Source: Candidatus Nomurabacteria bacterium | Lineage (GTDB): Bacteria > Patescibacteriota > Patescibacteriia > HK-STAS-PATE-3 | Assembly: GCA_023898465.1 (NCBI GenBank) | Contig: CP060223.1 | Coordinates: 192,001-256,000 of the forward strand | Direction of reading: 5' to 3' | Length of the DNA stretch: 64,000 nt | Part shown: positions 7,582 through 28,421 of the stretch, one piece after another | Position numbering within the stretch: position 1 is the first letter of the stretch | Layout of the letters: each line of letters starts with the position of its first letter | Notes under the pieces: generated by a model | The model's database searches: none | Told to the model about the DNA's origin: nothing | The model's input: the letters and a program-made list of their open reading frames with translations, nothing else | Translations under genes and position numbers: made by a program

Positions 7582-8136
7582 CTAGAATTTTACCTGAACG
7601 TTTTCTCGCTCGCTTGGTTCTTCGATCTCAAAGAATTCGCGAGTCTTGAAGCCAAACATTCCGGCGATCAAGTTGGTTGGGAAAACCTGCAACTTTGTGT
7701 TCAGATCTCGTACGTTACCATTAAAGAAGCGACGAGATGCTTGAATCTTGTTTTCCGTGTCAGAGAGCTCGTCCTGTAGTTTGGCAAAGTTTTCTGAAGA
7801 ACGTAGCTGTGGATAATTTTCCGACACAGCAAAAAGGCTTTTTAAAGCACCAGAGAGAGCGTTTTCTGCCTGTGCTTTTGCCTCAGTTCCCTGGGCGCTA
7901 ATTGCTTGAGCTCGAGCCTCGGTGACTTTAATAAAGACATTCTGCTCTTGCTGCGCATAACCTTTCACCGTTTCAACGAGATTGGGGATAAGGTCGTGTC
8001 GTCGCTTTAACTGAACGTCAATATCTGACCATGCTTCATCAGTGCGGTTGCGTAGACTAATAAGACCGTTGTAGGTTCCCCAGAACCAGAGCGCAATCAG
8101 AGCGATAAGTGCGAGTACAATCCAAAGATATAACAT
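7582..8136 (-). CDS. lemA: LemA family protein
   Basis: 184 aa; N-terminal TM helix then conserved LemA region (…GTYNGLISLRNRTDEAWSDIDVQLKRRHDLIPNLVETVKGYA…ENYPQLRSSENF…). Confidence 0.85.
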   Translation of the reverse strand: MLYLWIVLALIALIALWFWGTYNGLISLRNRTDEAWSDIDVQLKRRHDLIPNLVETVKGYAQQEQNVFIKVTEARAQAISAQGTEAKAQAENALSGALKSLFAVSENYPQLRSSENFAKLQDELSDTENKIQASRRFFNGNVRDLNTKLQVFPTNLIAGMFGFKTREFFEIEEPSERENVQVKF

Positions 8137-8159
8137 AATAGAGTTGCTTAGAAGTTAAA

Positions 8160-8678
8160 TTATTGCGAAAGGACTATTTTTTGAGCTGTACCTTTATTTA
8201 CTTGTCCAGCAGTATTTTTCGCTAATACTTGTATTTTATCACCAACTGATAGGGAAGAGATAGTAATGCTTTCCTCAGTGGCTGGAGCCGCATCAGTATA
8301 GTAGATTGTCCGTACAATAGCAGTATTTTCCTCAATCGTAAGGGTAATTTCTTCTCCATTTTCACCCTGCATAATGAGGGAATTACCTTGAATTCGTGCA
8401 ATAGTGCCACTAATTCCGATCATTTGACGAGCTTCATCGGAAATTTGCGATCCGGAAAGCCTTTCCAGCGCTCCCATACCTGTTACTTCATTTCCATTCG
8501 TGTCACTTTCATTTTGCTGTTGGCCCGGGAACACTAAGACGAGGACGGTAAGAATAGTCAGCACAATAGTAACGCCAATAACTGAACGCATAACCCTAAT
8601 CCAAGGGTCGTGCGCGTGTTGTCCTAGCTCGGTCTTTCGTATAATGTTTTGTGTCAGACCTGGAGTTTGTTTAGGCAT
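8160..8678 (-). CDS. Hypothetical membrane-anchored periplasmic/extracytoplasmic protein
   Basis: 172 aa; single N-terminal TM helix (VIGVTIVLTILTVLVLVF) followed by soluble beta-rich domain; no recognisable catalytic motif. Confidence 0.45.
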   Translation of the reverse strand: MPKQTPGLTQNIIRKTELGQHAHDPWIRVMRSVIGVTIVLTILTVLVLVFPGQQQNESDTNGNEVTGMGALERLSGSQISDEARQMIGISGTIARIQGNSLIMQGENGEEITLTIEENTAIVRTIYYTDAAPATEESITISSLSVGDKIQVLAKNTAGQVNKGTAQKIVLSQ

Positions 8679-8687
8679 GGGATTTTG

Positions 8688-8716
8688 TTGACGCTAGGTC
8701 GAGAAAGTGGTAGAAT
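8688..8716 (+). promoter_or_regulatory. Candidate sigma70 promoter for the surface-protein operon (TTGACG-17-TAGAAT)
   Basis: -35 TTGACG at 8688-8693, 17-nt spacer, -10 TAGAAT at 8711-8716; ~135 nt upstream of first operon ATG (8853), SD-like GGGGGAG at 8834-8840. Confidence 0.45.
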
Positions 8717-8852
8717 TTTTTTGTATTTTTTGGACGAGTGTAATTCGACCATCTGACCTACTCTATGATAGTATAGGTGTGTCGACAAGGCTCTGTCAAA
8801 GCCATTTTCCTTACTACAACAAAATTGTGCTACATCGGGGGAGTACATATTG

Positions 8853-9881
8853 ATGCGAATAAATAGTAATTCGCGTCGAAAAAAGCATATTAGTCTGCTC
8901 GTCATTCTTGGAGTGACGATGCTGTTTTTTGGTGTTTCCCAAGCATTTGCGTATTGGACTGAGCCTGATTTACCAGCCCCTGATTCCAGCGTGGGATATC
9001 CGATTTTCCAGGGCAGTGCAAGTGATATTTCTAGCCTTCTCAGTCAAACTAAGACCGGTGGACTCACTATTGGTCCTCCTGGAACTTTAGATATATCAGG
9101 TGGATTAAACACCAGCACTGTTTCTAGCACCTCAAATGTGGTTGTGGACAGTGGCCAGCTCTGTTTAAACGGTTTGTGTATTAGCTCATGGGGTGCGATT
9201 GCGGGAGGATATGTCCATCTGAGCCCTATTTCGGCTGATGCGGGTACGCTTTGGGTGCAGAGTAACAGTTCTGACCCGGCGCTAAACTCAAAGATTATTC
9301 CTAAAAGCAACTTCTTTGGAGTCCGCAGTATTGCCGCAGAGCCAAGTCCAGCTGCTCAGACTGCTGGAATAGCAGGTGATAGTTCAGATCAAGCCTCACC
9401 ACCCGGAGACACTCCCACCTATGGTATCGGTGGCGTGGCGGTTAACATCTCCTTCTGTGTTGGTGGAAGTAACGCCGGCGAGGTGTGTACGGCAAATAGC
9501 GATTGTACTTCAAATGTTTGTACGCCATACGATAAGAGTACGGGTGTATGGGGCTCAAATGGTGGAAATGCGAATGCCTGGGCTGGACGTTTCGATGGTC
9601 GGGTCGGTGTAGAAGGCGAACTTTGTATTAACGGCGATTGTCGCGATGTTTCAAACTGGGGCCCACCTGGTGGGTATAACGATTATGTGCGGGTACAAGA
9701 CAGCGGTGATCCTATTTTCCAAAGCGGTTTGGTAAAAATTCAAGGTACAGTGAAGAGTGGTCAGTTTGTTTTAGGTGCGCCGACTGCCTCCACCTCAATT
9801 TTGTTGACCTGCGGCGATAATCTTTGTAATTACGGTGAAAATGGCGAAAATATTGTAAATTGCGCGGAGGATTGTTCCTAA
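8853..9881 (+). CDS. Secreted Cys-containing surface protein, paralog A (N-domain + CGDG-type Cys knot)
   Basis: Signal peptide (…VSQAFA|YWTEPD); shares N-terminal module (QTKTG, ICLNGxC, YVxLS, AxAGxFxGxV) with 9883 and 15005 genes; ends with LTCGDNLCNYGENGENIVNCAEDCS knot. Confidence 0.6.
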   Translation: MRINSNSRRKKHISLLVILGVTMLFFGVSQAFAYWTEPDLPAPDSSVGYPIFQGSASDISSLLSQTKTGGLTIGPPGTLDISGGLNTSTVSSTSNVVVDSGQLCLNGLCISSWGAIAGGYVHLSPISADAGTLWVQSNSSDPALNSKIIPKSNFFGVRSIAAEPSPAAQTAGIAGDSSDQASPPGDTPTYGIGGVAVNISFCVGGSNAGEVCTANSDCTSNVCTPYDKSTGVWGSNGGNANAWAGRFDGRVGVEGELCINGDCRDVSNWGPPGGYNDYVRVQDSGDPIFQSGLVKIQGTVKSGQFVLGAPTASTSILLTCGDNLCNYGENGENIVNCAEDCS

Positions 9882-9882
9882 T

Positions 9883-11511
9883 ATGCGACATCTTTCCTCC
9901 ATTGGAACGCTGCTTCTCCTCATCATACTAGGGACGACTAATGCTTTGCCTGTGCATGCACAATGGGTCGAACCTGATACTGGTGAATTTCCTACCACCG
10001 GAGGAAGCACGCAAGCGCCTTTAAATACTTCCAACGTAGATCAAACAAAGACTGGATCATTCTTTTTACAGCGCGGCTTAACAGCGGAGAATGGAGTGAG
10101 TTCAAGCGGCGTACTCACGGTACAAAATGGTAATTTGCGTGTTACGCCAGACGGCGGCGGTCAAATTTGTCTCAACGGTGTATGTAAAAGCTCGTTAGAA
10201 ACAAGCTCGGATAACTATGTACGTTTGTCTGCGATTGATCCTGACCTCGGCTTTGTGCTACTCGGTGATGGCTCAACTAACGAAGGTTATTTAGACATTA
10301 GTTCGACCGAAACAATTGGCTTATACGGTATTGCCGGTGATCCTATAACAAAAAACACCTACGGTTTATTGGGTATTGCTGGTGCTGATGATGCTCCGTG
10401 GCCTAATTTTTCAGCCGGTGTTTTTGGTGAGGCTGGTGCAAATACAAGTCAATCGATTGGTTTATCTGGTGTGAGTCCCGATCCAGACGGCCCTGCCTAT
10501 GCAGCCTACTTTAAGGGGCGAGTGAATATTGTGGGATGTCTTGAGTGGAATGGAGGCACTTGCTTAAATGCGTGGCCAAGTGGATTACCAAGCGGTGAGT
10601 ATGTTGCGCTTCTTGAAGATGACGATGAGCCGCAAATAGGAAATATTGATTTATCGACCAGCTCGACAACAGTTTTTACTAGCGTTGTGTTAGGCGATGA
10701 CCCCTCGGGCTTAAGTTTACCTGTGACCTGTGGAGACGGTATTTGCAACAATAGCGAGAGTGGGCTTACTTGTGCGATCGATTGTTTCACCATTATCAAC
10801 CTCCAAGTTACCAATATTACGGATGGCAGTGCTACCGTTACCTGGCGTACGCTGATCAATGCTGATTCATATGTTGAGTATGGATTGACCAGCGATTTTG
10901 GTAGTGATGTATATGATGCCTCGATGGTGACGATGCACTCTTTGCAAATACATAGCTTGAATCATGATACGCATTACTATTTCCGGGTCCGCACAACGAC
11001 CGGCTCGGGCATTTCTCAAACCAGCTCGATACAATCATTCACAACCCTACTTGATCAGACAGCACCTAATGTGCCGGCTAATTTGCGAACTACAACCCCA
11101 GCACCAGATCGAGTGCCATTAGCGTGGTTCCACTCTCAGCTTGATAATCCGGGTGGATCTGGTTTTAAAGAGTTCATTGTTTATCGTGATGGATCACCCT
11201 ACGACACTACCGGTAATACCTACTATGTAGATTATTTCCCAGATCCTGGATATGACCACGTCTATTGGGTGACTGCTGTGGATAATCGTAACAATGAGTC
11301 AGAGGCTTCAAATCCACTTATCGTGCATGTACCAACTCCGTGTATTAGCGACCTTGACTGTACTGATCCGCAGTATCCAGTTTGTTATGGTGCATTGGGG
11401 TGTGGCACACCTCCGCCCGGAGGCTCGCCAGTCATGCTTAAAGAAATTCCCTTAGAGTATTCCCAATATCAGGATCCAGGTGGTTGGGATGAAGGAGGTG
11501 GCTGGTACTAA
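9883..11511 (+). CDS. Secreted surface protein, paralog B (N-domain + CGDG Cys knot + 2 FN3 domains + Cys-rich C-terminal tail)
   Basis: Signal peptide (…PVHA|QWVEPD); TCGDGICNNSESGLTCAIDC; FN3-like regions (…VTNITDGSATVTWRT… and …ANLRTTTPAPDRVPLAWF…YWVTAVDNRNNESEAS…); tail C…C…C…GGSPVMLKE. Confidence 0.6.
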   Translation: MRHLSSIGTLLLLIILGTTNALPVHAQWVEPDTGEFPTTGGSTQAPLNTSNVDQTKTGSFFLQRGLTAENGVSSSGVLTVQNGNLRVTPDGGGQICLNGVCKSSLETSSDNYVRLSAIDPDLGFVLLGDGSTNEGYLDISSTETIGLYGIAGDPITKNTYGLLGIAGADDAPWPNFSAGVFGEAGANTSQSIGLSGVSPDPDGPAYAAYFKGRVNIVGCLEWNGGTCLNAWPSGLPSGEYVALLEDDDEPQIGNIDLSTSSTTVFTSVVLGDDPSGLSLPVTCGDGICNNSESGLTCAIDCFTIINLQVTNITDGSATVTWRTLINADSYVEYGLTSDFGSDVYDASMVTMHSLQIHSLNHDTHYYFRVRTTTGSGISQTSSIQSFTTLLDQTAPNVPANLRTTTPAPDRVPLAWFHSQLDNPGGSGFKEFIVYRDGSPYDTTGNTYYVDYFPDPGYDHVYWVTAVDNRNNESEASNPLIVHVPTPCISDLDCTDPQYPVCYGALGCGTPPPGGSPVMLKEIPLEYSQYQDPGGWDEGGGWY

Positions 11512-14500
11512 TGCGCTATTTCCAACTTCATTTACGTAAACGTTTAACAAATCTGGTGACTTTTGGATTAGCCGTACTTATGCTCGGCGTACTTATGATT
11601 GCTAGCCGTTTCGTAGGTAACGCAAATGCAGAATTTGGACTGACACCACGGTGGTCAACTGAGCCTCATGTGGGAGATAGTTCAGTCTACATTGGTCCAT
11701 GGTCAGCACCGATACAAAACTCTGCTTCCAGTCGACTCTTTGTATATACCGATGATATTCCTGGCGGGGATCGCAATAATTACGTGTTCCGTGTGAACGA
11801 TGATGGTAGCTCAGTGTTAGGAACCAAACTCACTCCAGCGCTAAATGTGGGAACAAACCAGGGAAATAATTTTGGCTTTGTCTCAGATGGTATCGGCGGC
11901 GCTTACGTTGGTTGGACCTCTAACGTTATTGGGGTGGGGTATAACAACGTCATTGCTCGAGTAGGTTCAAGTGGTAATTTGCAGTGGGTGCGTGCAAACA
12001 ATGATGCCGTGGGTGTATCTGAAGTAAACTGGGGACAGTATTTAGCCTCAGACACGAGTGGCAATGCGCTTATTACTTACTTTAAGGGTAGTTCTGTGTG
12101 TGCGATGAAGCTTAGTCGAGCAACTGGTGTGAGTCAGTGGTCATCATCAGCCAATTGTACCGTGGGAGCTCGATCTGCCCGTGAAATTTATCACTCTAGT
12201 TCAAATGCCATTGTGCGAGGCATGATTTCTGATCAACAGGGCGGCATGATTGTGCTACATCGCGATGGCGCAGGAAGCATTTTGCATGCCACTCGAGTAA
12301 ATAGTACTGGTACCGTACTCTGGACAGTAAGCATTACCGATGCTACTGGTGGTTCTCCAACTGGATTAGAATTATTTGCCAAGACTCCAGATACTTTTTA
12401 TGCGATTTGGCGTAAGAGCTCATCAAACTTTATTCAAGCTTTTCACACCTCAGATGGAAGTGCTGCCTGGGTTAACCCCCTCCTCTTTGCTGAATCGAAT
12501 AGCTATGATCCATCAAGTCAATTTGATCGAGCAAAGTTTGTTTGGAGTGGAGCCGATGAGTTGGCCACCGCTTGGCGGCGAACATCTGATAGCGCCCTGG
12601 TAACGAATCGCATTAATGTGGAAACGGGCGCGAAGCGTTGGGCTTCCGACGTTGTAGTGACGACCGAAGCTGAGGATAATAACTATAAAGTGGCAGGGAC
12701 GGCTCAGGGAGTCACCTTCTTTGCCTATTGTCATGATAATGTGCCATCTGATTCAGCACTTTGTGAAATGCAGGGAGTGAGTGCGGGCGGAGCGCTTGTC
12801 TTTTCTGCTGACGGAGTTGATGTTCGACGGAGTAAACCAGATGACATGCAATTCGGTCTGCACACCGTTACTTCATCGACAAGTAACACATATTGTTTGG
12901 ATGAGGGCTTCCGACGTATTGGAGAATCTGTTGGTGCACAAAGTTATTGTCTGAATAGTTTACCTACAGTTTCAGATCCGATTTGTAGTATTGATAACGG
13001 TAGTAATTTTGTACTTTGTTCTGATGCACAACAGGGTTCAACGGTGAGTCACGTGCAAGTAACCTGTGACCCAGGAGATTTTGTCCCACTTTCAGAAGGT
13101 ATGGTAGCAAATACTAGTGGAGTGCACGAGGATTCTGCCTTTATTGAGGGTCGCTATGTGGTATATCGCTATCTTGACTCCGGTCCTCGATGGAAAGTGT
13201 ACGCGTACGATTTAGGTCCTGATCAGCAGTTTGGTACGGGTGATGACCTAGGCACAAAAATTTTGGTGGATGAGGGGAGTATTGATACCTACCCACAAGA
13301 TATTAAGAATGGAAGAATTTTATATTGGCGTTCAGCTGGTGGCACGGCCTCTTTGCGTTTTTATAACCTCAGTGATGACTCGATAGATCCAGGCACCTTA
13401 ACGAGCGTCGCCTTTTCTTCAATTTCTGGCTACGATGGACGCTACTTAGTCTATGCACCTAGCGGCACAACCAACTTGAGTGTGAAAGATTTAGGTGTGG
13501 ACGAGGTGCTCGGTACGGCTGATGACGGGGGAAGCACTCAGCTTAATTCGACGCCCATGGCAAACTATGCCCGGGTGAGTGGACGTTATGCAGTTGGGCA
13601 CTCCACCGGTGGTTTAGATGATATCTATCTCTTCGATCTTACTTCGATTACACAAACACCTGTATATAGCAATGCTTCGGTGCAAGCTGATGTGCCAGAT
13701 ATCCAAGGACGATATATTGCTTGGATGGATTTTCGTAATGATCCAAATGGGTACGATGATGGCAGCGGCACCAGCAATGGCGACATCTTCATTTATGACA
13801 TGGGTCCAGATGAACAATACGGCACCTCTGATGATATCGGTGAATCACAAATCAGCGCCTCGGCGAAAAAAGATAGCTCACCGCGGATTGCCGGTACAAA
13901 GATTCTCTGGCATCAAACACAGAATGGCGGCGCGTCCGATGCAAATCAAAACGTTATGATGTACGACCTCGGACCGGATGGTGAATATGGTACGGCCGAC
14001 GATACTTCAGAAACCCAATTAACCAATAGTCTTAATAATGAATACTGGCCACGCGGAGATGGTGAGAACATTGTTTGGTTAAGCGATCAAAACGGTCCAG
14101 CAAATACCGATATTTTTATTACACCAGCTGGAATTGGTGCTGCATCAATAAGCGAAGTTCGCTTCACTATGACTGCGCCATCTGGTACGCGTTATGTTGA
14201 TCAAGTAGCTGGTGAGGTGAATGCTTCAACGTATACTCTTTATTACCCTGAGCTCATTGACGAAGAGGGGCAGTGGACGGTACAAGCCACTTGTGAAGAT
14301 GTGGCTGGACAAACAGTGCAGCGTGAAAGTATTTGGGATGTTGGACCTTGGCCTTTTAGTGATCAGCAAAAACTTTCTGTCTACGACGGAGTAGCGCAAA
14401 TTTCTAAGAATTCCGGTGATACGATGGAGATAGGTAATGCTGGACGCGATATTACCTCGAATGGAAATATTTACATCCGCCCGAATAACAGTTACGCGGG

Positions 14501-15020
14501 AGCGTACTTCGAAGGCGTAGCTTCAACTGGATCGCAGCGACTCCATCTACCCTATGGTGTGCCAGGTCAACACACTGTCTTTGCCAAGGGCACAGGTACG
14601 GTAAATAGCGCAGATGGTGCGAGTGGAATTGCAGGAATTTTTACAGGACTCTCTAATAATGCAGGTGGCAGTGGGGTTTACGGTGATGTAATGAGTTGTG
14701 CAAGCAGCGGTGGATGTGCCGCAGGGTATTTCCAGGGTGGAGATCAGATTGGCCTCTACGCCTCGACAAACAATGCCTCTTTACCAGCCCTACGAGCAGA
14801 AAACGCTGCCACACCAAATGCATCTACGCTGAATATGTCCGCACTCTTTACGGGTAAGGTGCAAGTGAGTCAGGACCTCTCCGGTTCATTTAGCCCTGAT
14901 GCCTGTGTATGGGTGACGGTAGACGTGGGCGATACTGTGTGTCCAAACGAAGGCTTTGTCTTTGGTTACGATAGCACCAGTTTCGGAGTAGCTGATAAAC
15001 TTTATTGTTGCGGAAACTAA
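11511..15020 (+). CDS. Large secreted surface protein, paralog C (PQQ-like beta-propeller + repeated GPD/GTxDD blades + Ig-like modules + conserved C-terminal CC domain)
   Basis: 1169 aa; signal peptide; PQQ-like repeats (…SGNLQWVRANND…, …GTVLWTVSITD…); four YDLGPDxxYGTxDD repeats; C-terminal ~210 aa homologous to 16671 and 17461 genes, ending …KLYCCGN. Confidence 0.6.
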   Translation: MRYFQLHLRKRLTNLVTFGLAVLMLGVLMIASRFVGNANAEFGLTPRWSTEPHVGDSSVYIGPWSAPIQNSASSRLFVYTDDIPGGDRNNYVFRVNDDGSSVLGTKLTPALNVGTNQGNNFGFVSDGIGGAYVGWTSNVIGVGYNNVIARVGSSGNLQWVRANNDAVGVSEVNWGQYLASDTSGNALITYFKGSSVCAMKLSRATGVSQWSSSANCTVGARSAREIYHSSSNAIVRGMISDQQGGMIVLHRDGAGSILHATRVNSTGTVLWTVSITDATGGSPTGLELFAKTPDTFYAIWRKSSSNFIQAFHTSDGSAAWVNPLLFAESNSYDPSSQFDRAKFVWSGADELATAWRRTSDSALVTNRINVETGAKRWASDVVVTTEAEDNNYKVAGTAQGVTFFAYCHDNVPSDSALCEMQGVSAGGALVFSADGVDVRRSKPDDMQFGLHTVTSSTSNTYCLDEGFRRIGESVGAQSYCLNSLPTVSDPICSIDNGSNFVLCSDAQQGSTVSHVQVTCDPGDFVPLSEGMVANTSGVHEDSAFIEGRYVVYRYLDSGPRWKVYAYDLGPDQQFGTGDDLGTKILVDEGSIDTYPQDIKNGRILYWRSAGGTASLRFYNLSDDSIDPGTLTSVAFSSISGYDGRYLVYAPSGTTNLSVKDLGVDEVLGTADDGGSTQLNSTPMANYARVSGRYAVGHSTGGLDDIYLFDLTSITQTPVYSNASVQADVPDIQGRYIAWMDFRNDPNGYDDGSGTSNGDIFIYDMGPDEQYGTSDDIGESQISASAKKDSSPRIAGTKILWHQTQNGGASDANQNVMMYDLGPDGEYGTADDTSETQLTNSLNNEYWPRGDGENIVWLSDQNGPANTDIFITPAGIGAASISEVRFTMTAPSGTRYVDQVAGEVNASTYTLYYPELIDEEGQWTVQATCEDVAGQTVQRESIWDVGPWPFSDQQKLSVYDGVAQISKNSGDTMEIGNAGRDITSNGNIYIRPNNSYAGAYFEGVASTGSQRLHLPYGVPGQHTVFAKGTGTVNSADGASGIAGIFTGLSNNAGGSGVYGDVMSCASSGGCAAGYFQGGDQIGLYASTNNASLPALRAENAATPNASTLNMSALFTGKVQVSQDLSGSFSPDACVWVTVDVGDTVCPNEGFVFGYDSTSFGVADKLYCCGN

Positions 15021-16681
15021 TGCATTCAAAACTACGCATCTCAATTTTCTTTCTCGCTACAATCATTGTAGGAACCTTTGCTTTCAGGGCGATGGCTTTT
15101 ATCGAGCCGGATGATTTCCCGCCCAGTGATACAACGAGCGCACCAGTATTGACTGGTCCACAGGATCAGACTCGTCAGGGACCCCTGACAGTGCAAGGCA
15201 ACGTTAGCGCTTCCGGACCTTTAATTACTCGTGATAGTGAAATCGTTACCTCCGGTGATGTTACGGTGAGCGGTGGTGCTTCAATTTGTTTGAATGGAGA
15301 TTGTATTAACGCATGGACAGCGGCACTTGGTGATTTTGTTCGTCTCTCGCCACCGTCATCTGACGACGGATATATTCACTTGCAAGGTGGGGCTACTTTC
15401 CAAGCTGCCACTGACGCTGACTTTGCTCTATATTCTCGCGCCATTGCTCCGACAGCTAGTGCGAGTTATGGCTTTTATGGCAAGTCTTGGACTGGTCCAG
15501 TTACGAATAACTATAGCTACGGCGTACTTGGAGTGGCAGCTCATGAGGGAATAAATCCCGGAGCCCTAGCTTATGGCATTTTTGGCTGGAATGGAGATAA
15601 CCTCAATGCCTATGCAGGCTATTTCACTGGGAATGTTCAGTTAGTGAATAACTCGGAACTTTGTCTGACTGATGGTTTCACTATTGACTGTCGAACCACT
15701 TGGCCAAATGGAGCACCGGGCGAAGAATTTCTCCTCTTACAAAATACTTGGCCTACTTCAAGTCAGATTGGAAACACCGCGGTGAGTGGAAATGCGCAAT
15801 TTGCGAATGCGCTGTTGGGTGATCCGGGCGCCGGCACTCTTACCTGTGGCGACGGATTTTGTTCCGAGGATGCGATCAGTTGTCCAATTGACTGCCCGAC
15901 GATAACGAACATCGATGCGGAGTGGCTGACCTCTAGCAGCGCCCAGTTTACCTGGACTTCAAATACGACGATGACCTCAGTAGTTCAGTTTGGTCTTTCA
16001 GATCTCTATGGTGGACAAGACATTGACGGTTCATATGTCACAAGTCATTCAATCACCATTGAGGGCCTAGATAGCGATCAGGATTATCATTACCGCGTTG
16101 GTGGTCTGACGGAAAATTCTGGTGCAGCTGTGTTTTCCTCAGATCAAATATTGTCAGCCAGCGTGGTTGATATTGATCCTCCGCCAGTTCCGAGTGGATT
16201 AGTACTTGATGTGCATATTCCACCTCCATCTCCAACAGAAATCATCGACTTAACCTGGGCTCATGATTTGAGCGATAACCCAGTGGGTGGAAGTGGTTTT
16301 AAAGAATTTCATATCTATCGATTAGACTGGTCAGTTGGTCCTCCCTTTGTAATGATTGGCACCACCACCGATTTGAATTTCATTGATGATTCAGGGGATT
16401 TGAGTCAGACAAATGATTATACCTATAGTGTCACTGCAGTGGATAATAATGGCAATGAGTCAGATCCTTTCGAGCGAGCAGTGCACATTCCAGCGAGGTG
16501 TTCTTTTGATGTGGAATGTGGCGTTGATCCGGGATATCCTTTCTGCTGTACATGGAATGAAGGTGATAAAGCCTGTAGCGCAACTTCTTGTAAAGGAGGC
16601 GGGTCTCCAATTATGTTGAAGGAAGACCCTCCGCCATTAGGGCCACCTCCATGTAACGGTCCTGATTGTTATGGACCATAA
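15005..16681 (+). CDS. Secreted surface protein, paralog D (N-domain + CGDG knot + 2 FN3 + Cys-rich tail)
   Basis: Signal peptide (…FRAMA|FIEPDD); ICLNGDC, TCGDGFCSEDAISCPIDC, FN3 regions, tail …CCTWNEGDKACSATSCKGGGSPIMLKE…; alternative start at 15020 overlapping upstream stop. Confidence 0.6.
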   Translation: MLRKLMHSKLRISIFFLATIIVGTFAFRAMAFIEPDDFPPSDTTSAPVLTGPQDQTRQGPLTVQGNVSASGPLITRDSEIVTSGDVTVSGGASICLNGDCINAWTAALGDFVRLSPPSSDDGYIHLQGGATFQAATDADFALYSRAIAPTASASYGFYGKSWTGPVTNNYSYGVLGVAAHEGINPGALAYGIFGWNGDNLNAYAGYFTGNVQLVNNSELCLTDGFTIDCRTTWPNGAPGEEFLLLQNTWPTSSQIGNTAVSGNAQFANALLGDPGAGTLTCGDGFCSEDAISCPIDCPTITNIDAEWLTSSSAQFTWTSNTTMTSVVQFGLSDLYGGQDIDGSYVTSHSITIEGLDSDQDYHYRVGGLTENSGAAVFSSDQILSASVVDIDPPPVPSGLVLDVHIPPPSPTEIIDLTWAHDLSDNPVGGSGFKEFHIYRLDWSVGPPFVMIGTTTDLNFIDDSGDLSQTNDYTYSVTAVDNNGNESDPFERAVHIPARCSFDVECGVDPGYPFCCTWNEGDKACSATSCKGGGSPIMLKEDPPPLGPPPCNGPDCYGP

Positions 16682-17459
16682 GTATATGCAAATGCAAAAA
16701 CATCAATTCGTACTAATATTTGGAACTGTGCTTTTCTCTGCTCTCTTCCTGGTCAGTAGTGCCTTGCCTGAAAAAGGGTATGCGGCTACACCTTTTGGAG
16801 GAAACAGCAATAAGCGCTTGTCTATTTATAATGGTACTTTATTACTTGATGGTAGCGCACAATTGCGCTTAGGTAATGCCGGTCGCGATATTCAAGCAAG
16901 CGGGACTCTGTATCTGCGTCCTGATGGAAGCGCGCGTGGCTCCTTCTTCAGCGGTGTTACCAATGATGTTGGTCAGCGCCTTTCATTAACTGGCGGCATT
17001 AGTGGCAGTGATACTATCCAAGCCTCCTGGATCGGAACGAATGGAGTAGACGAAACTCGAGGCGCGGTCACTGGTTATTTCCACGGCGCTCCTGATAGTG
17101 CGGTTGGTGCCGCAATTTTTGGTGAAGTACAATCATGTGGTGTTGGGCAAACCTGTTACGCTGGTTACTTTGCCGGTGGCCAAAGCACAGGAGTGCAAAC
17201 GTATACGGCGACAAATCCAAACGGTGGAGCTACTCCTGCTTTGCAAGTATTAAATGCTGATGCAAATGGCGTAGCCGCTTCCTTTACCGGTAATGTGCAG
17301 ACAAATCGGCTTATTCTCGATAATAATACTCGTTCTGCGTGTACCTGGGAGTCGGTAAGCGGTGCAGAATTAGTCTGCCCTAGCGGAAAATTATTAGCCG
17401 GTGTCCGAGCGAGTAATACAGACCCAGTCATTTCTGATATTTATTGTTGTGAGCTGTAA
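16671..17459 (+). CDS. Secreted protein E: signal peptide + stand-alone copy of the conserved C-terminal 'CC' domain
   Basis: 262 aa; aligns over its whole mature length to C-termini of 11511 and 17461 genes (LGNAGRDI…, …SCGVGQTCYAGYF…, …CTW…VCPSG…IYCCEL). Confidence 0.6.
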   Translation: MDHKYMQMQKHQFVLIFGTVLFSALFLVSSALPEKGYAATPFGGNSNKRLSIYNGTLLLDGSAQLRLGNAGRDIQASGTLYLRPDGSARGSFFSGVTNDVGQRLSLTGGISGSDTIQASWIGTNGVDETRGAVTGYFHGAPDSAVGAAIFGEVQSCGVGQTCYAGYFAGGQSTGVQTYTATNPNGGATPALQVLNADANGVAASFTGNVQTNRLILDNNTRSACTWESVSGAELVCPSGKLLAGVRASNTDPVISDIYCCEL

Positions 17460-17460
17460 T

Positions 17461-19716
17461 ATGCAATTCCCGCGATTACATAAACTACACATTTTAAGCG
17501 CGATGTTCATCGCAGTGCTTGGTTTAGGTGTCGCAGTTGGTGCCTACACCTATTCAAACTGGACTCGACAGCAAAAAGGAGCCGAGAATACGAGCGCTAG
17601 TACTGATAATGGTCCAACCGCGAACGTGGTGCAGGGGACGGTGTCGGGTTGTGTAAGCGGTACCACGCAAACGGTTGATTGGACGATGGTACGAGATGGA
17701 GAGCTTATCGTTGTTGCACATTCTGAGTCACAGGAAAAACTTTGCATTTATGATTATAACAGCGTTGCCACTTCACCGATTCGACAATATGACATGACTC
17801 AATCCGAGCGAAGTCCGGTTGTGGTAGGGGATGTGCTCTATCGAGTCAAAAAAGGCTTAAGTCCAATTCAAGTAGAGGCACGTTCACTCATCGATGGATC
17901 AGTGCTGTGGACAAAAACGATTAGCTCAACTGCGGTGGGTAGTACTTACAATGTAATAACCGCAGCTAATGGCAATCTCTATATCGGAGCGAAATTTAAT
18001 GGATCCGAGCAGAGAGTGCTCGCACTGCAGCAGATTGATGGTCAGCTGTTATGGATGCGCACTATTGAGCCAAGCTTTGGCTTTTCGACCAGCGTTGAAC
18101 AGCTTGGCGCCTTAGCAGTTAGTAGTGATCAAGTGTTTATCCAATTTGTTGAAGGTTCGCTGTCTGATGGTCGGGTTGGTTATCGTGCGCTTAATGCGAG
18201 TACTGGAGCCGTGAACTGGACTGCCGGTCCTTATGGTTCCGGAGTGATTCGGACCAGAGCGTCACTAATTTACGCTGATAATGCTATTTATGCTGCGCCT
18301 GATGCATATATTTCTCTCAGTTCAGCTACTGGAAATCAAACCTGGAATCAAGCAATGGCAGCTACGAATGAGGCCTTAAGTATCGCCTATAGCAGCACTA
18401 AGGTGTACTACTCCGAGCGACGAAGCACGCAATACGCCTATCTCGCTCGAAGTGCTATAAACGGCGGTTTGTCATGGACAGCTGGAAATTATAACGGCTC
18501 TATTGGTGATGGTCCCCTTGTCGTAGTAAATAACAACTTCCTATATCACTGCGCAAATAGTACCTTGCGAGGCATTTCCACTGTGACTGGTTTTGTTACG
18601 TTCACGGGAGTTGCGCCCACCTTCTGCAATGCCGCTGCAGTATATAATGGAATATTGTATGTGAATGGTAATGCCGGCTCAGTAGACCAAGGTAAAGTGC
18701 GTTTAATCGCAAATACTTTGCCCGCAAGCGCTACAACAACAGTTGGTGTGCCGACATGTAGCATTGATAATGGTTCTAATTACGTTGATTGCGCGAACTT
18801 ACAATATGGCGCGATTGTGACACATGCTCGGACAACCTGTACGAGTACTGCAGGAGTAAAAGAGGTGCAGTTCACCTTAACAGGGCCCGCCGGTACACAA
18901 TACTCCTCAGTAAAAGCACAAACAGTCGTCGGTGCTACCTATACTACACATGCGCCGGGAACGCTCGTAGGTAGTGGGCAATGGACCCTGACGGCAAAGT
19001 GCGTGAATAGCATTAATGAGAGTACATCGAATCAAAAGATTTGGACTGTTGGATCTGCTCCAAGTGAAGGATCTCAGAAGCTTTCTATTTACGAAGGAAG
19101 CGCTCGCTTTACTGATGGTGAGACTATGGAAGCGGGTGCGCTCAGCGGAGATGCAAATATCGACTGGATTGGCTCTGATAGTATTTATGTTCGTCCAAAC
19201 ACTTCAAACGGTTCTTCATTCTTCCAAGGTGTTTCAGCACTTGATCGGCAAAGCCTCTATTTAAGCGGCGGCATTAATGCGAAACCAAGCTTGGAAGCAG
19301 TTGGTTTAGGACAAAATGGAGTACCGTACCTAGGCTCTGCTATTGCCTCAACTTTTGATGGGGCTAGTTTTTCCTCCGGTGGCGGTGCAATTTACGGAGG
19401 AGTGAGTAGTTGCGGGGCAGGGAAAACTTGCTACGCAGGATACTTCAATAACAGCTCCGAAACTGGCTATGGTATTCTCGTTACGAATAACTCCGCGTCG
19501 CAACCTACGCTTCGGGCGGAAAATTTAGCCGGTGGCACTGCAGCCAATTTCGTGGGCGTAGCTAAGGTGAGTGGCGATCTACAGGCAGATAATAATACGG
19601 TGAATAGTTGTACCTGGACACCAGTGAGTGCAAAAGAATGTCCGGCTGGGACTGTCGCCTCTGGTATGCGATTTAGCGGAGGAGTGGTGAGCGAATATAA
19701 TTGTTGTAGTCTCTAA
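17461..19716 (+). CDS. Large secreted surface protein, paralog F (PQQ-like beta-propeller + Ig-like modules + C-terminal CC domain)
   Basis: Start taken at ATG 17461 just after upstream stop (ORF track begins 17401); PQQ-like repeats (…DGSVLWTKTISS…, …DGQLLWMRTIEP…); Ig-like modules paralogous to 11511 gene (CSIDNGSNYVDC…); tail …EYNCCSL. Confidence 0.6.
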   Translation: MQFPRLHKLHILSAMFIAVLGLGVAVGAYTYSNWTRQQKGAENTSASTDNGPTANVVQGTVSGCVSGTTQTVDWTMVRDGELIVVAHSESQEKLCIYDYNSVATSPIRQYDMTQSERSPVVVGDVLYRVKKGLSPIQVEARSLIDGSVLWTKTISSTAVGSTYNVITAANGNLYIGAKFNGSEQRVLALQQIDGQLLWMRTIEPSFGFSTSVEQLGALAVSSDQVFIQFVEGSLSDGRVGYRALNASTGAVNWTAGPYGSGVIRTRASLIYADNAIYAAPDAYISLSSATGNQTWNQAMAATNEALSIAYSSTKVYYSERRSTQYAYLARSAINGGLSWTAGNYNGSIGDGPLVVVNNNFLYHCANSTLRGISTVTGFVTFTGVAPTFCNAAAVYNGILYVNGNAGSVDQGKVRLIANTLPASATTTVGVPTCSIDNGSNYVDCANLQYGAIVTHARTTCTSTAGVKEVQFTLTGPAGTQYSSVKAQTVVGATYTTHAPGTLVGSGQWTLTAKCVNSINESTSNQKIWTVGSAPSEGSQKLSIYEGSARFTDGETMEAGALSGDANIDWIGSDSIYVRPNTSNGSSFFQGVSALDRQSLYLSGGINAKPSLEAVGLGQNGVPYLGSAIASTFDGASFSSGGGAIYGGVSSCGAGKTCYAGYFNNSSETGYGILVTNNSASQPTLRAENLAGGTAANFVGVAKVSGDLQADNNTVNSCTWTPVSAKECPAGTVASGMRFSGGVVSEYNCCSL

Positions 19717-19717
19717 T

Positions 19718-22700
19718 ATGGCATTTGTACAACGACATTCACGAGCACTATTTATCAGTATATTCGCAACACTTGTTATAGTGGCTGCTGGACTTCTTAT
19801 TGCAAAGGTTAGTTTTGCTGGGCTCGAGTGGGAGCCGCAAAAACCTCCAGAAGTATATCAGAATAACAGTAGCATCGACTTCTATAAAGTTGATTTCCAA
19901 CAAAACCCCAGCGATAATAAATACTATGGTTGGGTGGTAGGTGAGGACTTAAGCGGTAAACAATCAAGCCTCCTTTACTTTAATGGCGCTTTTTGGAAAT
20001 CAATTACCGACGACGGTTTGGGTGCGGGGTCGACATCGGACCTCTTTGATGTTTCCGCTGTTTGGAATTCAGATATTGATCAGTATCTTGTTTGGGCAGT
20101 AGGGGAAAATCAAGCGCTCTGGTATTTAACTGACAGCGAGACTGTGTGTAATAGTGAAGCTATCCCATGTCCTGATAGTCCAGCTGGAGCTGTGACTTTA
20201 AATTCGGTTGAAGGTGCTTGGTATAGCGGAGATGATAAAGTTGCCTTTTTTGTAGGTGATAACGGGCACATTTATCATGCAGTGGCTGATGATTACCAAA
20301 GCGCATTCGCCTACACCGCAGCATTTGCTACGAGCGGGACCATCCGCGATATTGATTCTTTTGACGCTGCACATACTTGGGCAGTATCAAGTGATGGCAA
20401 GATATATTTTAATAGCGATTATCTGACAAACTCGTGGGTGCAACAAGCCTCTTTCCCAGGCATTGATTTTACAGGAGTGTCAGCGGCAGATGCCAGCCAC
20501 GTATGGGCTTCGGCAATTAACGGCACAAAAGGTCAAATTTATTTTTACGACGGGTCCACCTGGTCGCTCCAATTCACTACAGTGCTTGATATTCCGCTTC
20601 ATGATGTGAGTGCATTTTATAATCCTACTTTATCTATTTATAATGCCTTTGCGGTTGGTGATATTGATTCCTCTACAGGCAACGGAGGTGTTTATCAATA
20701 TAATGGTACAATTTGGGAACGGCAGGATTCAAATAATAATGGTGAAGTATTACGCGGCATTTCTGCTGCCAGCCTTATTGAGATACGAGCCGTTGGTGCG
20801 AACACCACACTCTTAACCAGCTCACCGGGAAATATATTTGGTTGGATTTGGCTAGGATCAAGCACAAGTAATGGAAGTGGCGATGCGCTGGGATGGGGAA
20901 GCGGAAGCTGCGCTAATCTTGATAGTTGTGAAAGTGCTGGCTTTACTTACGGCGTAAACATCCGCCGCAGTGGCACCAGTCAAGGTGCTTTGTCTGGTTA
21001 CTTTTGGCTAGGGAATGCTGATCCGGATGCTTATATTCCAAATGACTGTGACACCGATCCAGGCGTCGAAGCTTGTCAATCTAATTCGAGCATTAGCTGC
21101 ACTACTGATTTTGAATGTCGTTGCGCTATTAATTCAGCAGCTTGTTTTTCAACTGGTTGGATGTCGTTTAACAAAAAAGGCTCGGATGGTGTGACTGATG
21201 AGGCTGGCACACCTCCAGCTGCACCGTACAATGATGGTGCGCAAAACTATATTGCTCGATTTGATGCAAAGACGGGTAAGGTAACTGGCTGGGCTCGTTT
21301 ACTTTCCTTATACGAAGATCCAAGCACTGGTGGCTGGATTCGTTTGCGAGGGAATGCAGTTACTCCGAATGTAGGTGACTTACCAGTCCGAGACTGTAAA
21401 AATTGTGGCAAATTCTGCAGTCTCGACACTACGTATAAGTGTACAGTTGACGCTGACTGTAATGTAGACGCAGACGGTGATGGAACAGATGAAAACTACG
21501 GCCCGTGTAATGTGAGTGTTTGTAAGATTTGTAATGCTTTAAATGATGAAACAATCGTTTCTGCAAACATGTGCTCAAATACCGGCGGCACCTCATGTAC
21601 GCGACGTTGTGAGCTTAACAACAGTATTACCTGTACCGATGATGCAGATTGTATAGGATTTGGCTCATGTGTGAATGAGACTTTTTGTGATTCTTGTGTG
21701 ACCTATGACCAATATGGTGTAGCGATTGATGACGCAACTGGTAAGATTACCGGCTATGCTTGGAGTGGCGCGTCTACTACATATGGTCAACTTGGCTGGA
21801 TTGATTTTAATCGAGCAAACTATTATAGCCAGGCTTGGTTACAGACCCAATTTGGGAATATCTACGCTCAAGCTGATATCGGTAGCGTTGGTACGCCAGC
21901 TGCTCCAGAGGGTAAATGTAATGCGACATACGTGATTAGTGCAGCTGGTACCATCACTAACTTCTGTTCGCGCTACGAAGAAATCGATCCAACCGCCCCG
22001 CCAGGGGACTACACCACTCGCCCCTTCATCCAGCAAAACTACGATGAAATTTATTATCCAACCGAGGCAAATAACTATACGAACGTCCTAGGAAAATTGG
22101 ATCCAGATGCTCTGGTGCAGGATGTGGGCGCTGGAAAAAATAAATATGGCGATGAAATCATTACGGTAAACAGCGATGCTGATTTACTTGACCTTGGCTT
22201 GTGTGATGCTGACGGAGTAACGCTTGATGGCAAGGTATATCATGTGGTTGGAAATCTCAGTATCGGTGTCTGTAATCCTGGTAGCGGTGATGTTACTGAA
22301 TTGATTATTAAGAATTCTTCACTCGCCAGTGGGTCAGGGACAATAGTGGTTGATGGTAATCTCACCATTGATATGAATATAAGCTACGAACAAAGTTCAA
22401 TCTCTAATATTAGAGATTTGGCCTCCCTGGGTGTGATGGTGAAGAAAAATATGATAGTGACTGGTGATGTAGATTCAATCGTCGGCTCCTATATCGTCTT
22501 TGGAACCGATGAGACAGAAGCTAATAAATTTAGTGGAATTAAGATTGAAAACTCCTTAATCGAACGCTCCTTTAGTGCGCAAGGTCTCATGATCGCCCGA
22601 GGCTTCAAATTCGAGCGCACATATCGTGGCACCTTAATCGATCCACAACCAGCTGAGCAGGTGGTATACGATGGACGGGTGATTGCAAATACGCCGCCAG

Positions 22701-22756
22701 GATTCCGTGATTTTGCGAAAGTCTTACCAGTTATTCGAGAAACCATACCTTTTTAA
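19718..22756 (+). CDS. Large membrane-anchored/secreted surface protein G (BNR/Ycf48-like beta-propeller, Cys-rich repeats, beta-helix-like C-terminus)
   Basis: 1012 aa; N-terminal TM/signal (…AKVSFA|GLEWEPQ); repeats of type YxxWAVGxxG; Cys-dense region with repeated DxxTGK[VI]TG[WY]A units; no catalytic motif recognised. Confidence 0.55.
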   Translation: MAFVQRHSRALFISIFATLVIVAAGLLIAKVSFAGLEWEPQKPPEVYQNNSSIDFYKVDFQQNPSDNKYYGWVVGEDLSGKQSSLLYFNGAFWKSITDDGLGAGSTSDLFDVSAVWNSDIDQYLVWAVGENQALWYLTDSETVCNSEAIPCPDSPAGAVTLNSVEGAWYSGDDKVAFFVGDNGHIYHAVADDYQSAFAYTAAFATSGTIRDIDSFDAAHTWAVSSDGKIYFNSDYLTNSWVQQASFPGIDFTGVSAADASHVWASAINGTKGQIYFYDGSTWSLQFTTVLDIPLHDVSAFYNPTLSIYNAFAVGDIDSSTGNGGVYQYNGTIWERQDSNNNGEVLRGISAASLIEIRAVGANTTLLTSSPGNIFGWIWLGSSTSNGSGDALGWGSGSCANLDSCESAGFTYGVNIRRSGTSQGALSGYFWLGNADPDAYIPNDCDTDPGVEACQSNSSISCTTDFECRCAINSAACFSTGWMSFNKKGSDGVTDEAGTPPAAPYNDGAQNYIARFDAKTGKVTGWARLLSLYEDPSTGGWIRLRGNAVTPNVGDLPVRDCKNCGKFCSLDTTYKCTVDADCNVDADGDGTDENYGPCNVSVCKICNALNDETIVSANMCSNTGGTSCTRRCELNNSITCTDDADCIGFGSCVNETFCDSCVTYDQYGVAIDDATGKITGYAWSGASTTYGQLGWIDFNRANYYSQAWLQTQFGNIYAQADIGSVGTPAAPEGKCNATYVISAAGTITNFCSRYEEIDPTAPPGDYTTRPFIQQNYDEIYYPTEANNYTNVLGKLDPDALVQDVGAGKNKYGDEIITVNSDADLLDLGLCDADGVTLDGKVYHVVGNLSIGVCNPGSGDVTELIIKNSSLASGSGTIVVDGNLTIDMNISYEQSSISNIRDLASLGVMVKKNMIVTGDVDSIVGSYIVFGTDETEANKFSGIKIENSLIERSFSAQGLMIARGFKFERTYRGTLIDPQPAEQVVYDGRVIANTPPGFRDFAKVLPVIRETIPF

Positions 22757-22838: not shown

Positions 22839-23927
22839 ATGGGTTTATTTAACAAAAAAGAAAGCTATCTCGGGATTGATATCGGCACTTCTAGTATTAA
22901 AGTGTCTGAATTCAGAAACGAAGAAGGTCGTCCGCGCTTGTTAAGTTATGGCTTTGTCGAGCAACCAAGCGAGGTTTTAAAAAGCGATTCACCCGAAGCA
23001 ATCCAGCAAGTGGTGACTACCTTGTTAGGTGTGTTTAAAAAGGGCCATATGCAAAGCCGCAAAGTGGTTTCGGCTCTGCCTAGCTACGCAGTTTTCACAT
23101 CGATTTTGAGCTTGCCAGTAATGCCGAAGAAGGATTTATACTCGGCAATTCGCTGGGAGGCAAAAAAAATCGTCCCAATGTCCCTCGATGAAATGGTGCT
23201 AGACTGGCGCTTACTCCATGACCCAGAAGAGGCGACTGATGAAAAAGGTAAAAAGAGCAAAAAGGATCAAATAAGCAGTGGAGGTCCTAAAAATACCCGT
23301 GTGCTCATTACGGCAGCTCCAAAAAACTTAGTTAAACGTTACATTGATATATTTAAACTGGCTGAGCTCGAAATCGTCAGCCTAGAAACCGAGTCATTTG
23401 CCCTTGTTCGTTCACTTCTTGGACGAGATAATTCCACAGTGATGGTGGTGGATATCGGGGCAATTGCCACGGAAATAAGCGTTATACTCGATGGTATACC
23501 TTTTCTCAATCGAAGTATCGACGTAGGGGGAGAAACTATTACGAAATCAATAGCCAATAGTCTCAATATTGATGCAGAACGCGCTGAGCAAATTAAGCGC
23601 GACTTTGGCGTTATGAGTGGGCCGAGCACGAGTCAGATTCCTCGGGTTATTGAATTTGTCATGCAGAATATCGTGAATGAGATTCGCTATATTTTATCGA
23701 TGTATCAAAATCAGGGCGAAAAGCCAATTGAAAAAATTGTGTTGTCTGGTGGATCAGCCTTCCTGCCCAATTTGCCTAGCTATCTCGAGCAGATGATTAA
23801 GCTCAAATGCTATATTGGAGATCCGTGGGCTCGAGTAGTCTACCCAGTAGAATTAAAGCCAGTGCTAGATGAGATTGGACCACGCTTTGCCGTGGCAAAT
23901 GGTCTAGCCATGCGTGAAATTGTGTAA
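22839..23927 (+). CDS. pilM: Type IV pilus assembly protein PilM (actin-like ATPase fold)
   Basis: 362 aa; N-terminal LGIDIGTSSIKVSEF and overall PilM/FtsA-like architecture. Confidence 0.85.
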   Translation: MGLFNKKESYLGIDIGTSSIKVSEFRNEEGRPRLLSYGFVEQPSEVLKSDSPEAIQQVVTTLLGVFKKGHMQSRKVVSALPSYAVFTSILSLPVMPKKDLYSAIRWEAKKIVPMSLDEMVLDWRLLHDPEEATDEKGKKSKKDQISSGGPKNTRVLITAAPKNLVKRYIDIFKLAELEIVSLETESFALVRSLLGRDNSTVMVVDIGAIATEISVILDGIPFLNRSIDVGGETITKSIANSLNIDAERAEQIKRDFGVMSGPSTSQIPRVIEFVMQNIVNEIRYILSMYQNQGEKPIEKIVLSGGSAFLPNLPSYLEQMIKLKCYIGDPWARVVYPVELKPVLDEIGPRFAVANGLAMREIV

Positions 23928-23930
23928 TCT

Positions 23931-25244
23931 ATGGATATTAATCTCCTAAAAGATACTCAGCGATCTGAGGACCAGAAGAAAAAACAGTTGAACTCAACTG
24001 GTAATCAGGAGATGACAAATCCAGACAAGCTCCCGCCCGCTAAACCGGAGCCAAAGCTGCCTTCACGCTTTAGCACCTGGCTACAATCCCTCCGTGGTAA
24101 AAAAAATCCTAAAGAAATGCAAGAGGAAGAAATTATTCAAGAACCAATAAAAGCCCCAAAAAGTCCAACATTTGATGAGAGCGCTCGACCCAAGACCGAG
24201 GATATTTTTGCTGACCTCGACACACCCTCTTCTCAGCCTGAGTCAAATCCAGAGCCAATCATGTCAGATGAAGAGTCTTTACAAACCTTTACGCCGCCAG
24301 AGCCTAAGAAAAAGCAAGCAATGCCCAATGCGGTGAAACCCCCACGCTTCACTCAGAAGATGGAAGAAATTAAAATGACGCCTCCGCCAGAGTTACCCAA
24401 GAAAAAGGTAAAGCAGCCAAAAATTTCCTCATCGCGCGACCAATCCTTTTTGGTAAACTTGCTGCCAACTGAGTTTCAGCGATCAATTGACCCCCGTTCG
24501 AAATTAATCAGCCTGGGAATTACCGTTTTAATCACCGCCTTAGTGATTGGAGCTGCCTATGGAGCGTTGACGCTCTACCGCACCTCTATTTTAGAGCAGA
24601 TTCAGAGTCTACGTACGGAGCGCTCGGTTGTAGAAAGTACTATTAGCGATTTGCGCCCGAGTCAGCGTGAGGCGATTACCACAAAAGAGCGGACTGAATT
24701 GGTAAAGACCTTACTTGACCAGCACGTGTATTGGACAAGGTTTTTTGAAAAGCTTGAGGAATATACCATTGATGACGTGTATTACATTGGTGCCTTTAAT
24801 GGAAGTCTGGGTGGTCAAATTACGCTTTCGGCAGTTGGCACTTCCTTTAGTGCTCCGGCGCGCCAGTTAATTGCTTTTCAACAAGCCAGCGACTTTGTTT
24901 CCAGCGTGCGAATTACCTCAGCCCGTTCGGCTGATTCAGCCACTGGAACCACCGTCGGCAGCACCGGCACTGAGCAGATTTCTTTTTCGGTAACACTAAG
25001 CCTACTGCCTGACCTTTTCTATTATGATGCTTCTACCTTCCCCTTAGAGCGAATCGGCAATGTAACAACACCTTTGCCCGGTGACACTTCGCTCTTACCT
25101 GGTGCAACCGGAGTACCGGACTTAGGGACATCCACCAATACCAATACTTCAGGAGCTACAAATACGAACACCTCGACAAATACTAATTCAAGTACGAATA
25201 CCAACACCAGCACGACGCTTAATAGCAATATCTCGAACCCATGA
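23931..25244 (+). CDS. pilN: PilN-like pilus assembly protein with long disordered K/E/P-rich N-terminal region and Thr/Asn-rich C-terminal tail
   Basis: 437 aa; single TM helix (LISLGITVLITALVIGAAYGALTLY) then PilN-like periplasmic region; C-terminal low-complexity TNTNTS… tail. Confidence 0.55.
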   Translation: MDINLLKDTQRSEDQKKKQLNSTGNQEMTNPDKLPPAKPEPKLPSRFSTWLQSLRGKKNPKEMQEEEIIQEPIKAPKSPTFDESARPKTEDIFADLDTPSSQPESNPEPIMSDEESLQTFTPPEPKKKQAMPNAVKPPRFTQKMEEIKMTPPPELPKKKVKQPKISSSRDQSFLVNLLPTEFQRSIDPRSKLISLGITVLITALVIGAAYGALTLYRTSILEQIQSLRTERSVVESTISDLRPSQREAITTKERTELVKTLLDQHVYWTRFFEKLEEYTIDDVYYIGAFNGSLGGQITLSAVGTSFSAPARQLIAFQQASDFVSSVRITSARSADSATGTTVGSTGTEQISFSVTLSLLPDLFYYDASTFPLERIGNVTTPLPGDTSLLPGATGVPDLGTSTNTNTSGATNTNTSTNTNSSTNTNTSTTLNSNISNP

Positions 25245-25909: not shown

Positions 25910-25912
25910 GCT

Positions 25913-26206
25913 ATGGCACTGGTACAGAAAAGCAATAAAAAGAGCGTCACTATTTTACTCAGCGTCCTGGTCGGTGTCACGGTGATTGGTTTACTTGTGT
26001 ATTTCCTGGTTATCGCTCCACCGGATGTTGATCCAAATGTGAATACCTCCAATAATATTGTGCAGAGAGATTTGCCAATCTACACTACCTTTGGCGAAGA
26101 CTTGTTTGATGATCCGCGTTTCCGCGCCCTCGTGCCCTATGGTGATCTGCCGGTTGATCTAGGTGACGTGGGGAGGACTAACCCATTTGAGAAGCCATCC
26201 CCATGA
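25913..26206 (+). CDS. Small membrane protein of unknown function in pilus operon
   Basis: 97 aa; single TM helix (VTILLSVLVGVTVIGLLVYFLVIA); no motif recognised. Confidence 0.4.
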   Translation: MALVQKSNKKSVTILLSVLVGVTVIGLLVYFLVIAPPDVDPNVNTSNNIVQRDLPIYTTFGEDLFDDPRFRALVPYGDLPVDLGDVGRTNPFEKPSP

Positions 26207-28420: not shown

Positions 28421-28421
28421 C

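Follow-up and report, generated by a model that had tools for sequence, protein, structure and literature searches.

A rare composite C-terminal module shared by three secreted proteins of a Candidatus Nomurabacteria operon at the head of a type IV pilus cluster

In a stretch of 64,000 nucleotides (nt) of the Candidatus Nomurabacteria bacterium contig CP060223.1 (positions 192,001 to 256,000; hereafter the window), an operon of seven tightly packed genes, designated g1 to g7, precedes a type IV pilus gene cluster. Three of its products, g3, g5, and g6, have in common a C-terminal region, which is a real, unannotated, rare, and autonomous composite extracellular module. In kind it belongs with what is already known from surface and fibre proteins, namely C-terminal modules stabilised by disulfides. 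With respect to its role, we infer that the module may be a hetero-oligomerisation core joining the g3, g5, and g6 chains into one surface complex, and give this reading a probability of roughly 40%. The positions of all the features are listed in Table 1.

The relationship of the three copies was examined by BLASTP. The g5 protein matched g3 with an E value of 3e-33 (32% identity over 234 amino acids [aa]) and g6 with an E value of 7e-35 (39% identity over 221 aa), and the match between g3 and g6 was stronger (E 2e-42; 36% identity over 297 aa). The three-way alignment covered about 215 aa and contained 50 invariant columns, six Cys among them. A preliminary description of the window had proposed that a region of about 210 aa is common to the C-termini of g3 and g6 and to the entire mature g5 protein. 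With E values from 3e-33 to 2e-42 the alignment is highly significant, the proposed positions hold, and all of the conserved blocks listed there are found among the invariant columns. Its observation of a stand-alone copy plus fusions to different large proteins is likewise confirmed. The g3-g6 match reaches about 70 aa further upstream of the module and includes in addition a separate Cys block, 'CSIDNGSN'. From the N-terminus, g3 is composed of a hydrophobic segment, a beta-rich module of about 420 aa, the Cys block, beta-propeller repeats (TIGR04275, E 8e-10, under the curated cut-off), the g6-like segment of about 70 aa, and the module. In g6, an N-terminal hydrophobic segment is followed by a beta-propeller-like region, the Cys block, the g3-like segment of about 70 aa, and the module. 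Pfam PQQ_2 was detected in orthologs of g3 (weakly in loci L006 and L007; unmarked in L010) and in an ortholog of g6.

The module gave no match in Pfam, NCBIfam, or PHROGs when all seven operon proteins were scanned, and a profile search against the sequences of PDB yielded a chance match only (E 0.15). Scanning of distant relatives, 20 of them against Pfam and three against PHROGs, detected no family over the module. An exhaustive hidden Markov model search of 1.84 billion cluster representatives gave 70 matches, of which 17 had E < 1e-30 and covered the whole or a large part of the profile; the fully covering matches are 250-1208 aa in length, and the matched region ends at the C-terminus. 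One match (P0051) was rejected as a low-complexity artefact. Only four to six relatives were detected by a word-indexed homology search, and only two loci by a scan of GTDB genomes with a narrower alignment. The family is concluded to be unannotated and very rare, because there was no database match and only 17 full-length clusters were found. The protein g5 itself is 100% identical to the hypothetical protein H6760_00875 at NCBI, from a contig of 1.08 Mb in a Candidatus Nomurabacteria metagenome-assembled genome. As to the novelty claimed in the preliminary description, no annotated family in Pfam, NCBIfam, PHROGs, or the PDB sequences covers the region, but the last 45 aa remotely resemble a repeat of dermatopontin (see below). 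The module profile can define a new domain family.

Beyond the window (itself one of five complete loci), the operon was identified in other Patescibacteria, with L002 (the same as L004), L003, L006, and L008 complete, and L009 and L010 truncated by contig ends. In all five complete loci, the module profile detected exactly three copies per locus, always at the positions of g3, g5, and g6; the 64 kb of the window contain no others. Both truncated loci fit the same gene order. In this order, g1 to g7 are followed by pilM, an unassigned open reading frame (ORF) that by position would be PilN, and pilO, while an M48 peptidase, LemA, and an ORF of about 170 aa are located upstream on the opposite strand. 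In a neighbour-joining tree, the 15 copies were grouped by position, and every genome was represented in each clade. Copies of one type were 44-47% identical, and copies of different types 32-34%. Since the copies cluster by position and not by genome, the tree indicates an old triplication, of which three non-redundant chains appear to have been retained.

The payloads attached to the module vary across the genomes, whereas the module is constant. The g6 protein is a bare protein of about 260 aa without payload in L006 and L008, a g6-type protein (P0016) carries FG-GAP repeats, and g5 contains an inserted propeller in L010. The payload-free g5 is kept in all four complete loci checked (L008 left out). 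In a more distant member of Patescibacteria (L005), the same operon frame includes three adjacent chains of 252, 685, and 283 aa (7853-11504), which share the first two parts of the module, sub-modules i and ii; their end is a different domain of about 110 aa, 'VVQTSxG..ESPDARFxDYG...RKGY'.

The preliminary description had treated the region as a single domain. The homologous region is real, but it is a composite of three sub-modules that were found separately elsewhere. Sub-module i is beta-rich and has the consensus 'KLSxYxG..LEIGNAGRDIxSTGxIYLRPNxSxAGSxF' (profile positions about 4-75); dozens of other proteins (P0023-P0074) carry it alone, right behind their signal peptide. The 'AGYFxGxVxV' element of sub-module ii is repeated in P0024, P0031, and P0069; its interpretation as a phage-type tail-fibre element was not borne out by PHROGs. 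Both C114 and C120 of the Cys loop in sub-module ii are lost in P0021, as expected for a disulfide pair. Sub-module iii, a knob of 45-50 aa with the pattern C-x-W-x(8-14)-C-P-x-G-x(5)-G-x(10-15)-(Y)CC-x2, was found alone at the C-terminus of otherwise unrelated proteins (P0052, P0053, P0072, and the fibre-like P0069 of 1265 aa), and as three internal tandem repeats in P0064. The boundaries between the sub-modules are marked by insertions in two orthologs. The g6 ortholog of L002 (12949-14391) contains a g3-type N-terminal module of about 420 aa between parts ii and iii (35% identity to this module of g3 type, E 4e-79), and P0009, the g5 ortholog of L010 (7098-8924), contains a Kelch/DUF5122-like propeller of about 350 aa between the first and the second Cys of the knob. 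In AlphaFold 2 (AF2) prediction of the knob alone, three beta-strands were obtained with a predicted local distance difference test (pLDDT) score of 82.7, and the CC dipeptide is located within the last strand.

In the reading put forward here, the module would be an extracellular, disulfide-stabilised assembly unit present in one copy per chain, and the g3, g5, and g6 copies would associate with one another, probably at a ratio of 1:1:1. The g5 protein would supply the chain without payload, while g3 and g6 would supply the beta-propeller arms together with the common segment of about 70 aa just upstream of the module, and these arms would be the variable, probably ligand-binding parts. The complex would be made from the packed seven-gene operon heading the type IV pilus cluster, and its place of action is presumably the cell surface, where it would work together with the pilus, perhaps to attach this episymbiont-type bacterium. 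A joint complex fits best because a constant module is combined with variable payloads, the three types are non-redundant, one member is free of cargo, and the genes are tightly packed. The intergenic gaps within g1 to g7 range from -16 to +10 nt, and genes that overlap or lie 1-10 nt apart are usual for subunits of one complex. Each of the seven products has one N-terminal hydrophobic segment, and the total number of Cys is even throughout (g1, 12; g2, 12; g3, 16; g4, 16; g5, 6; g6, 14; and g7, 30); these features were counted for the assembly reading, as were the recurrence in L005 of a trio of chains with sub-modules i and ii in common, and the capping of long fibre-like proteins such as P0069 by the knob. 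In logic, though with no relation in sequence or fold, the arrangement is similar to that of C1q A, B, and C, three conserved, non-redundant paralogs that are encoded together, each with a shared C-terminal domain. C1q is a heteromeric assembly of the three paralogous chains via this domain, as is proposed for the chains of the window.

One constant module on different payloads, in an operon fixed beside pilMNO, would also be compatible with a non-covalent envelope anchor that binds the wall, the S-layer, or the pilus machinery and holds the propellers in the manner of SLH or CWB2 domains. Some other means of retention is needed, because the proteins carry neither an LPxTG motif nor a second transmembrane segment. 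An anchor free of cargo, such as the g5 kept in most complete loci, is however hard to explain. Furthermore, sub-module i is usually located at the mature N-terminus elsewhere, in fibre-like proteins the knob lies at the distal end, and no likeness to known wall-binding families was detected in Pfam or NCBIfam. A role as envelope anchor is considered improbable.

The conserved end of the module was considered with respect to a signal function. In the full-length members the module is located at the extreme C-terminus and ends with CC-x2 (CCEL, CCG[NTQ], or CC[SKTN]L; CC-x3 in one case). Whether the module is always C-terminal and always ends in this way, as the preliminary description asked, can be affirmed for these members apart from the one CC-x3; in P0064 the knob is internal and in tandem. 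If the CC-x2 terminus were a sorting, lipidation, or crosslinking signal read by a dedicated enzyme, the stop two or three residues past CC would be accounted for. LPXTG proteins of sortase systems and the C-terminal domains (CTDs) of the type IX secretion system, PEP-CTERM, GlyGly-CTERM, and MYXO-CTERM are comparable in that a conserved element stands at the extreme C-terminus of otherwise different secreted proteins. The module of the window is different from these sorting domains in that it lacks the order of motif, helix, and basic tail, can be internal, and has three carriers per locus. Neither a hydrophobic segment nor a basic tail was found at the C-terminus of the operon proteins, no LPxTG-like motif was found in any of the seven by regular expression, in agreement with the preliminary description, and none of the sorting-signal models of Pfam or NCBIfam matched them. 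The many cargoes per genome typical of a sorting system were not observed either, as there are only the three copies per complete locus, none elsewhere in the 64 kb searched of the window genome, and 17 clusters in the whole of the searched representatives.

The CC dipeptide itself points in another direction. The four Cys of the knob are invariant in 27 of 27 sequences, the Cys counts are even, and P0021 has lost both Cys of the loop; in addition, CC is inside a strand of a compact fold in the AF2 model, and is internal and repeated in P0064. For these reasons we argue that the terminal CC contributes to a pair of structural disulfides and is neither free nor lipidated nor a sorting element. 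From the invariant Cys and the strand position, the two adjacent residues would each be bonded to one of the two upstream Cys. The CC-x2 ending then looks like a domain boundary, and the chain would end two residues past CC because the last strand ends there. A signal at the CC-x2 terminus is accordingly very improbable, and neither of two ideas raised in the preliminary description is supported, namely the analogy to CTD-type sorting and a terminal CC left free to be lipidated or crosslinked. Of the three functions proposed there for the module (anchoring, sorting, or oligomerisation), its autonomy stands and oligomerisation fits best, but sorting finds no support.

A remote resemblance was found between the knob and the central repeat of dermatopontin, although the hhalign probability is too low for a claim of homology. 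The profile of the knob (n = 27) was aligned with residues 86-134 of human dermatopontin (DPT) with a probability of 64% (E 6.4e-5, 42 columns, all four Cys aligned), and with a profile of 19 vertebrate DPTs with a probability of 56% (E 1.1e-4, 42 columns). The score of 27.3 was compared with those of column shuffles of the knob alignment (10.6 +/- 2.3, maximum 17.8), none of which reached it (0 of 200). The human sequence used was recognised by the Pfam model DERM (PF14704) at 144.7 bits. The likeness consists of the pattern C-x-W ... C-[SP]-x-x-G-[LF]-[VI]-x-G ... (Y)CC with equal spacing, and both groups of proteins are secreted. Each copy in the window is a single unit, whereas DERM is a three-unit domain of roughly 150 aa; the D-R-E/Q-W motif is absent from the window copies, and nothing in DPT corresponds to the other 165 aa or so of the module. 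PF14704 did not match g3, g5, g6, P0064, P0052, P0053, or P0072 at E <= 1, the match of P0064, with its three tandem units, to DERM was not significant (probability 2.5%), and no relative of solved structure was found for dermatopontin by sequence. P0064 is a small secreted protein of 203 aa with a C..W..CP.G..CC pattern in each unit; its signal peptide is rich in Ala and Leu and does not look Patescibacterial.

Dermatopontin is an adhesive matrix protein, and its invertebrate relatives are agglutinins. The likeness, with the four Cys in register and a score above all the shuffles, raises the alternative that each copy is an independent adhesive or lectin-like head, in which the knob and the preceding module would bind a ligand on the host cell or matrix; the three paralogs would then have three specificities and form no joint complex. 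In line with this alternative, the knob forms the C-terminal tip in long fibre-like proteins such as P0069, and is arranged in tandem in P0064, as is often the case for binding modules. A faint structural likeness to phage tail-fibre proteins points the same way: several of these were among the BFVD fold matches of the knob (template-modelling score 0.6-0.73 over about 42 residues), but not significantly. The trimerisation or knob domains at the C-termini of fibrous proteins, such as the tips of phage tail fibres and the head of resistin, resemble the knob as small beta-rich caps, in resistin also disulfide-rich, behind a repetitive Gly-rich segment. The module is, however, more conserved than the payloads, while the tips of adhesins usually vary fastest; the strict set of three types per locus, one of them bare, is not predicted by separate heads; and membership in DERM is not established. 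Adhesive heads are possible but unlikely.

Several points weigh against the assembly of g3, g5, and g6 through the module. The AF2 model of the whole module (19 sequences) was poor (pLDDT 53.7), with low confidence in sub-module ii, so that a fibre or trimer fold is unproven; tail-fibre families of PHROGs gave no match, and the structural matches to tail fibres and resistin were not significant. The physical interaction of the chains is something we infer from sequence, and the pattern of three per operon could equally mean three independent binding specificities. Relatedness among the genomes may explain part of the synteny with the pilus genes, and the search for further copies in the genome of the window covered about 64 kb.

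Little is known about how the ultra-small Patescibacteria recognise and hold their host cells. Only type IV pili are so far well-supported players in this host attachment (e.g., PMC12206443), and the gene block reported here is described neither in that paper nor elsewhere in the literature searched. The seven secreted proteins at the head of the pilus cluster are concrete candidates for a pilus-associated attachment complex, for which the three-chain constant module with swappable beta-propeller payloads is a further candidate. A more far-reaching proposal, that g1/g2/g4 and g3/g5/g6 form two heterotrimers of an undescribed pilus-associated organelle with host-recognition propellers, and that the knob is a true prokaryotic relative of the dermatopontin repeat, is doubtful. 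Should the knob truly be linked to dermatopontin, a repeat of an animal matrix protein would gain a bacterial relative.

Table 1. Positions of the operon, the module copies, the sub-modules, and the pilus cluster in the window (position 1 is the first nucleotide of the window)
Feature	Position	Strand	Remarks
Operon g1-g7	8850-22756	+	seven genes; all products predicted to be secreted
g1	8850-9881	+	343 aa
g2	9883-11511	+	542 aa
g3	11511-15020	+	1169 aa; ends ...KLYCCGN
g4	15005-16681	+	558 aa
g5	16671-17459	+	262 aa; 255 aa from the NCBI start at 16692; ends ...IYCCEL
g6	17461-19716	+	751 aa from ATG; ends ...EYNCCSL
g7	19718-22756	+	1012 aa
Module copy 1 (g3 type)	14358-15020	+	C-terminal ~220 aa of g3; YCCGN-stop; BLASTP; profile 274 bits, ORF residues 956-1175
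Module copy 2 (g5 type)	about 16797-17456	+	mature module; g5 is signal peptide plus module only; YCCEL
Module copy 3 (g6 type)	19063-19716	+	C-terminal ~217 aa of g6; NCCSL-stop; BLASTP; profile 242 bits
Sub-module i in g5	about 16797-17020	+	'KRLSIYNG..LGNAGRDI..LYLRPDGS..FFSGV'
Sub-module ii in g5	about 17021-17309	+	Gly-rich; 'SCGxGxTCYAGYF' Cys loop; 'FTGNVQ'
Sub-module iii in g5	17310-17456	+	49-aa four-Cys knob, C-x-W...C-P-x-G...G...YCC-EL
Type IV pilus cluster	22839-37175	+	Pfam; starts 82 bases past the operon

The start of g6 at its ATG agrees with P0008, a protein of 751 aa recovered by the exhaustive search. A promoter-like site is located at 8688-8716 upstream of the operon; scans for promoters and terminators performed no better than on shuffled sequences.

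The products of g1, g2, and g4 constitute a second paralog triplet, with an N-terminal region of about 340 aa in common (34-36% identity). The mature N-terminus of this region is W/F-x-EPD, and it contains the motifs 'QTKxG', 'CLNGxC..W', 'AYAGYFxGxV', and 'TCGDGxC..E..C..DC'. The g1 protein is the bare shared region, while g2 and g4 each have an added extension that contains fn3. A motif 'C..GGSP[VI][MV]LKE' near the C-termini of g2 and g4 (about 11400-11511 and 16590-16681, respectively) is kept in the orthologs of L002 and L003. The g7 protein, secreted and with no family match, is operon-terminal in all loci including L005, where the counterpart is 1567 aa in length; the C-terminal motif 'YDGRVxANxPPGF' is common to both.

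The pilus cluster is complete and contains the genes for PilM, an ORF of 437 aa, PilO, PilB, a response regulator, PilT, PilC, six N_methyl pilins, and a prepilin peptidase. The ORF of 437 aa has no Pfam match, and its assignment as PilN follows from position only. No match to N_methyl (class III signal peptide, pilin) was detected in g1 to g7; the six downstream genes each have one. The gene for the response-regulator receiver, located between pilB and pilT (27953-28420), keeps this position in L006. Elsewhere in the window, the GC content is 0.569 at 46001-48000 against about 0.46 in the remainder. Long ORFs overlap in this segment on both strands, and the only Rfam match near it is a tRNA at 44594-44667.

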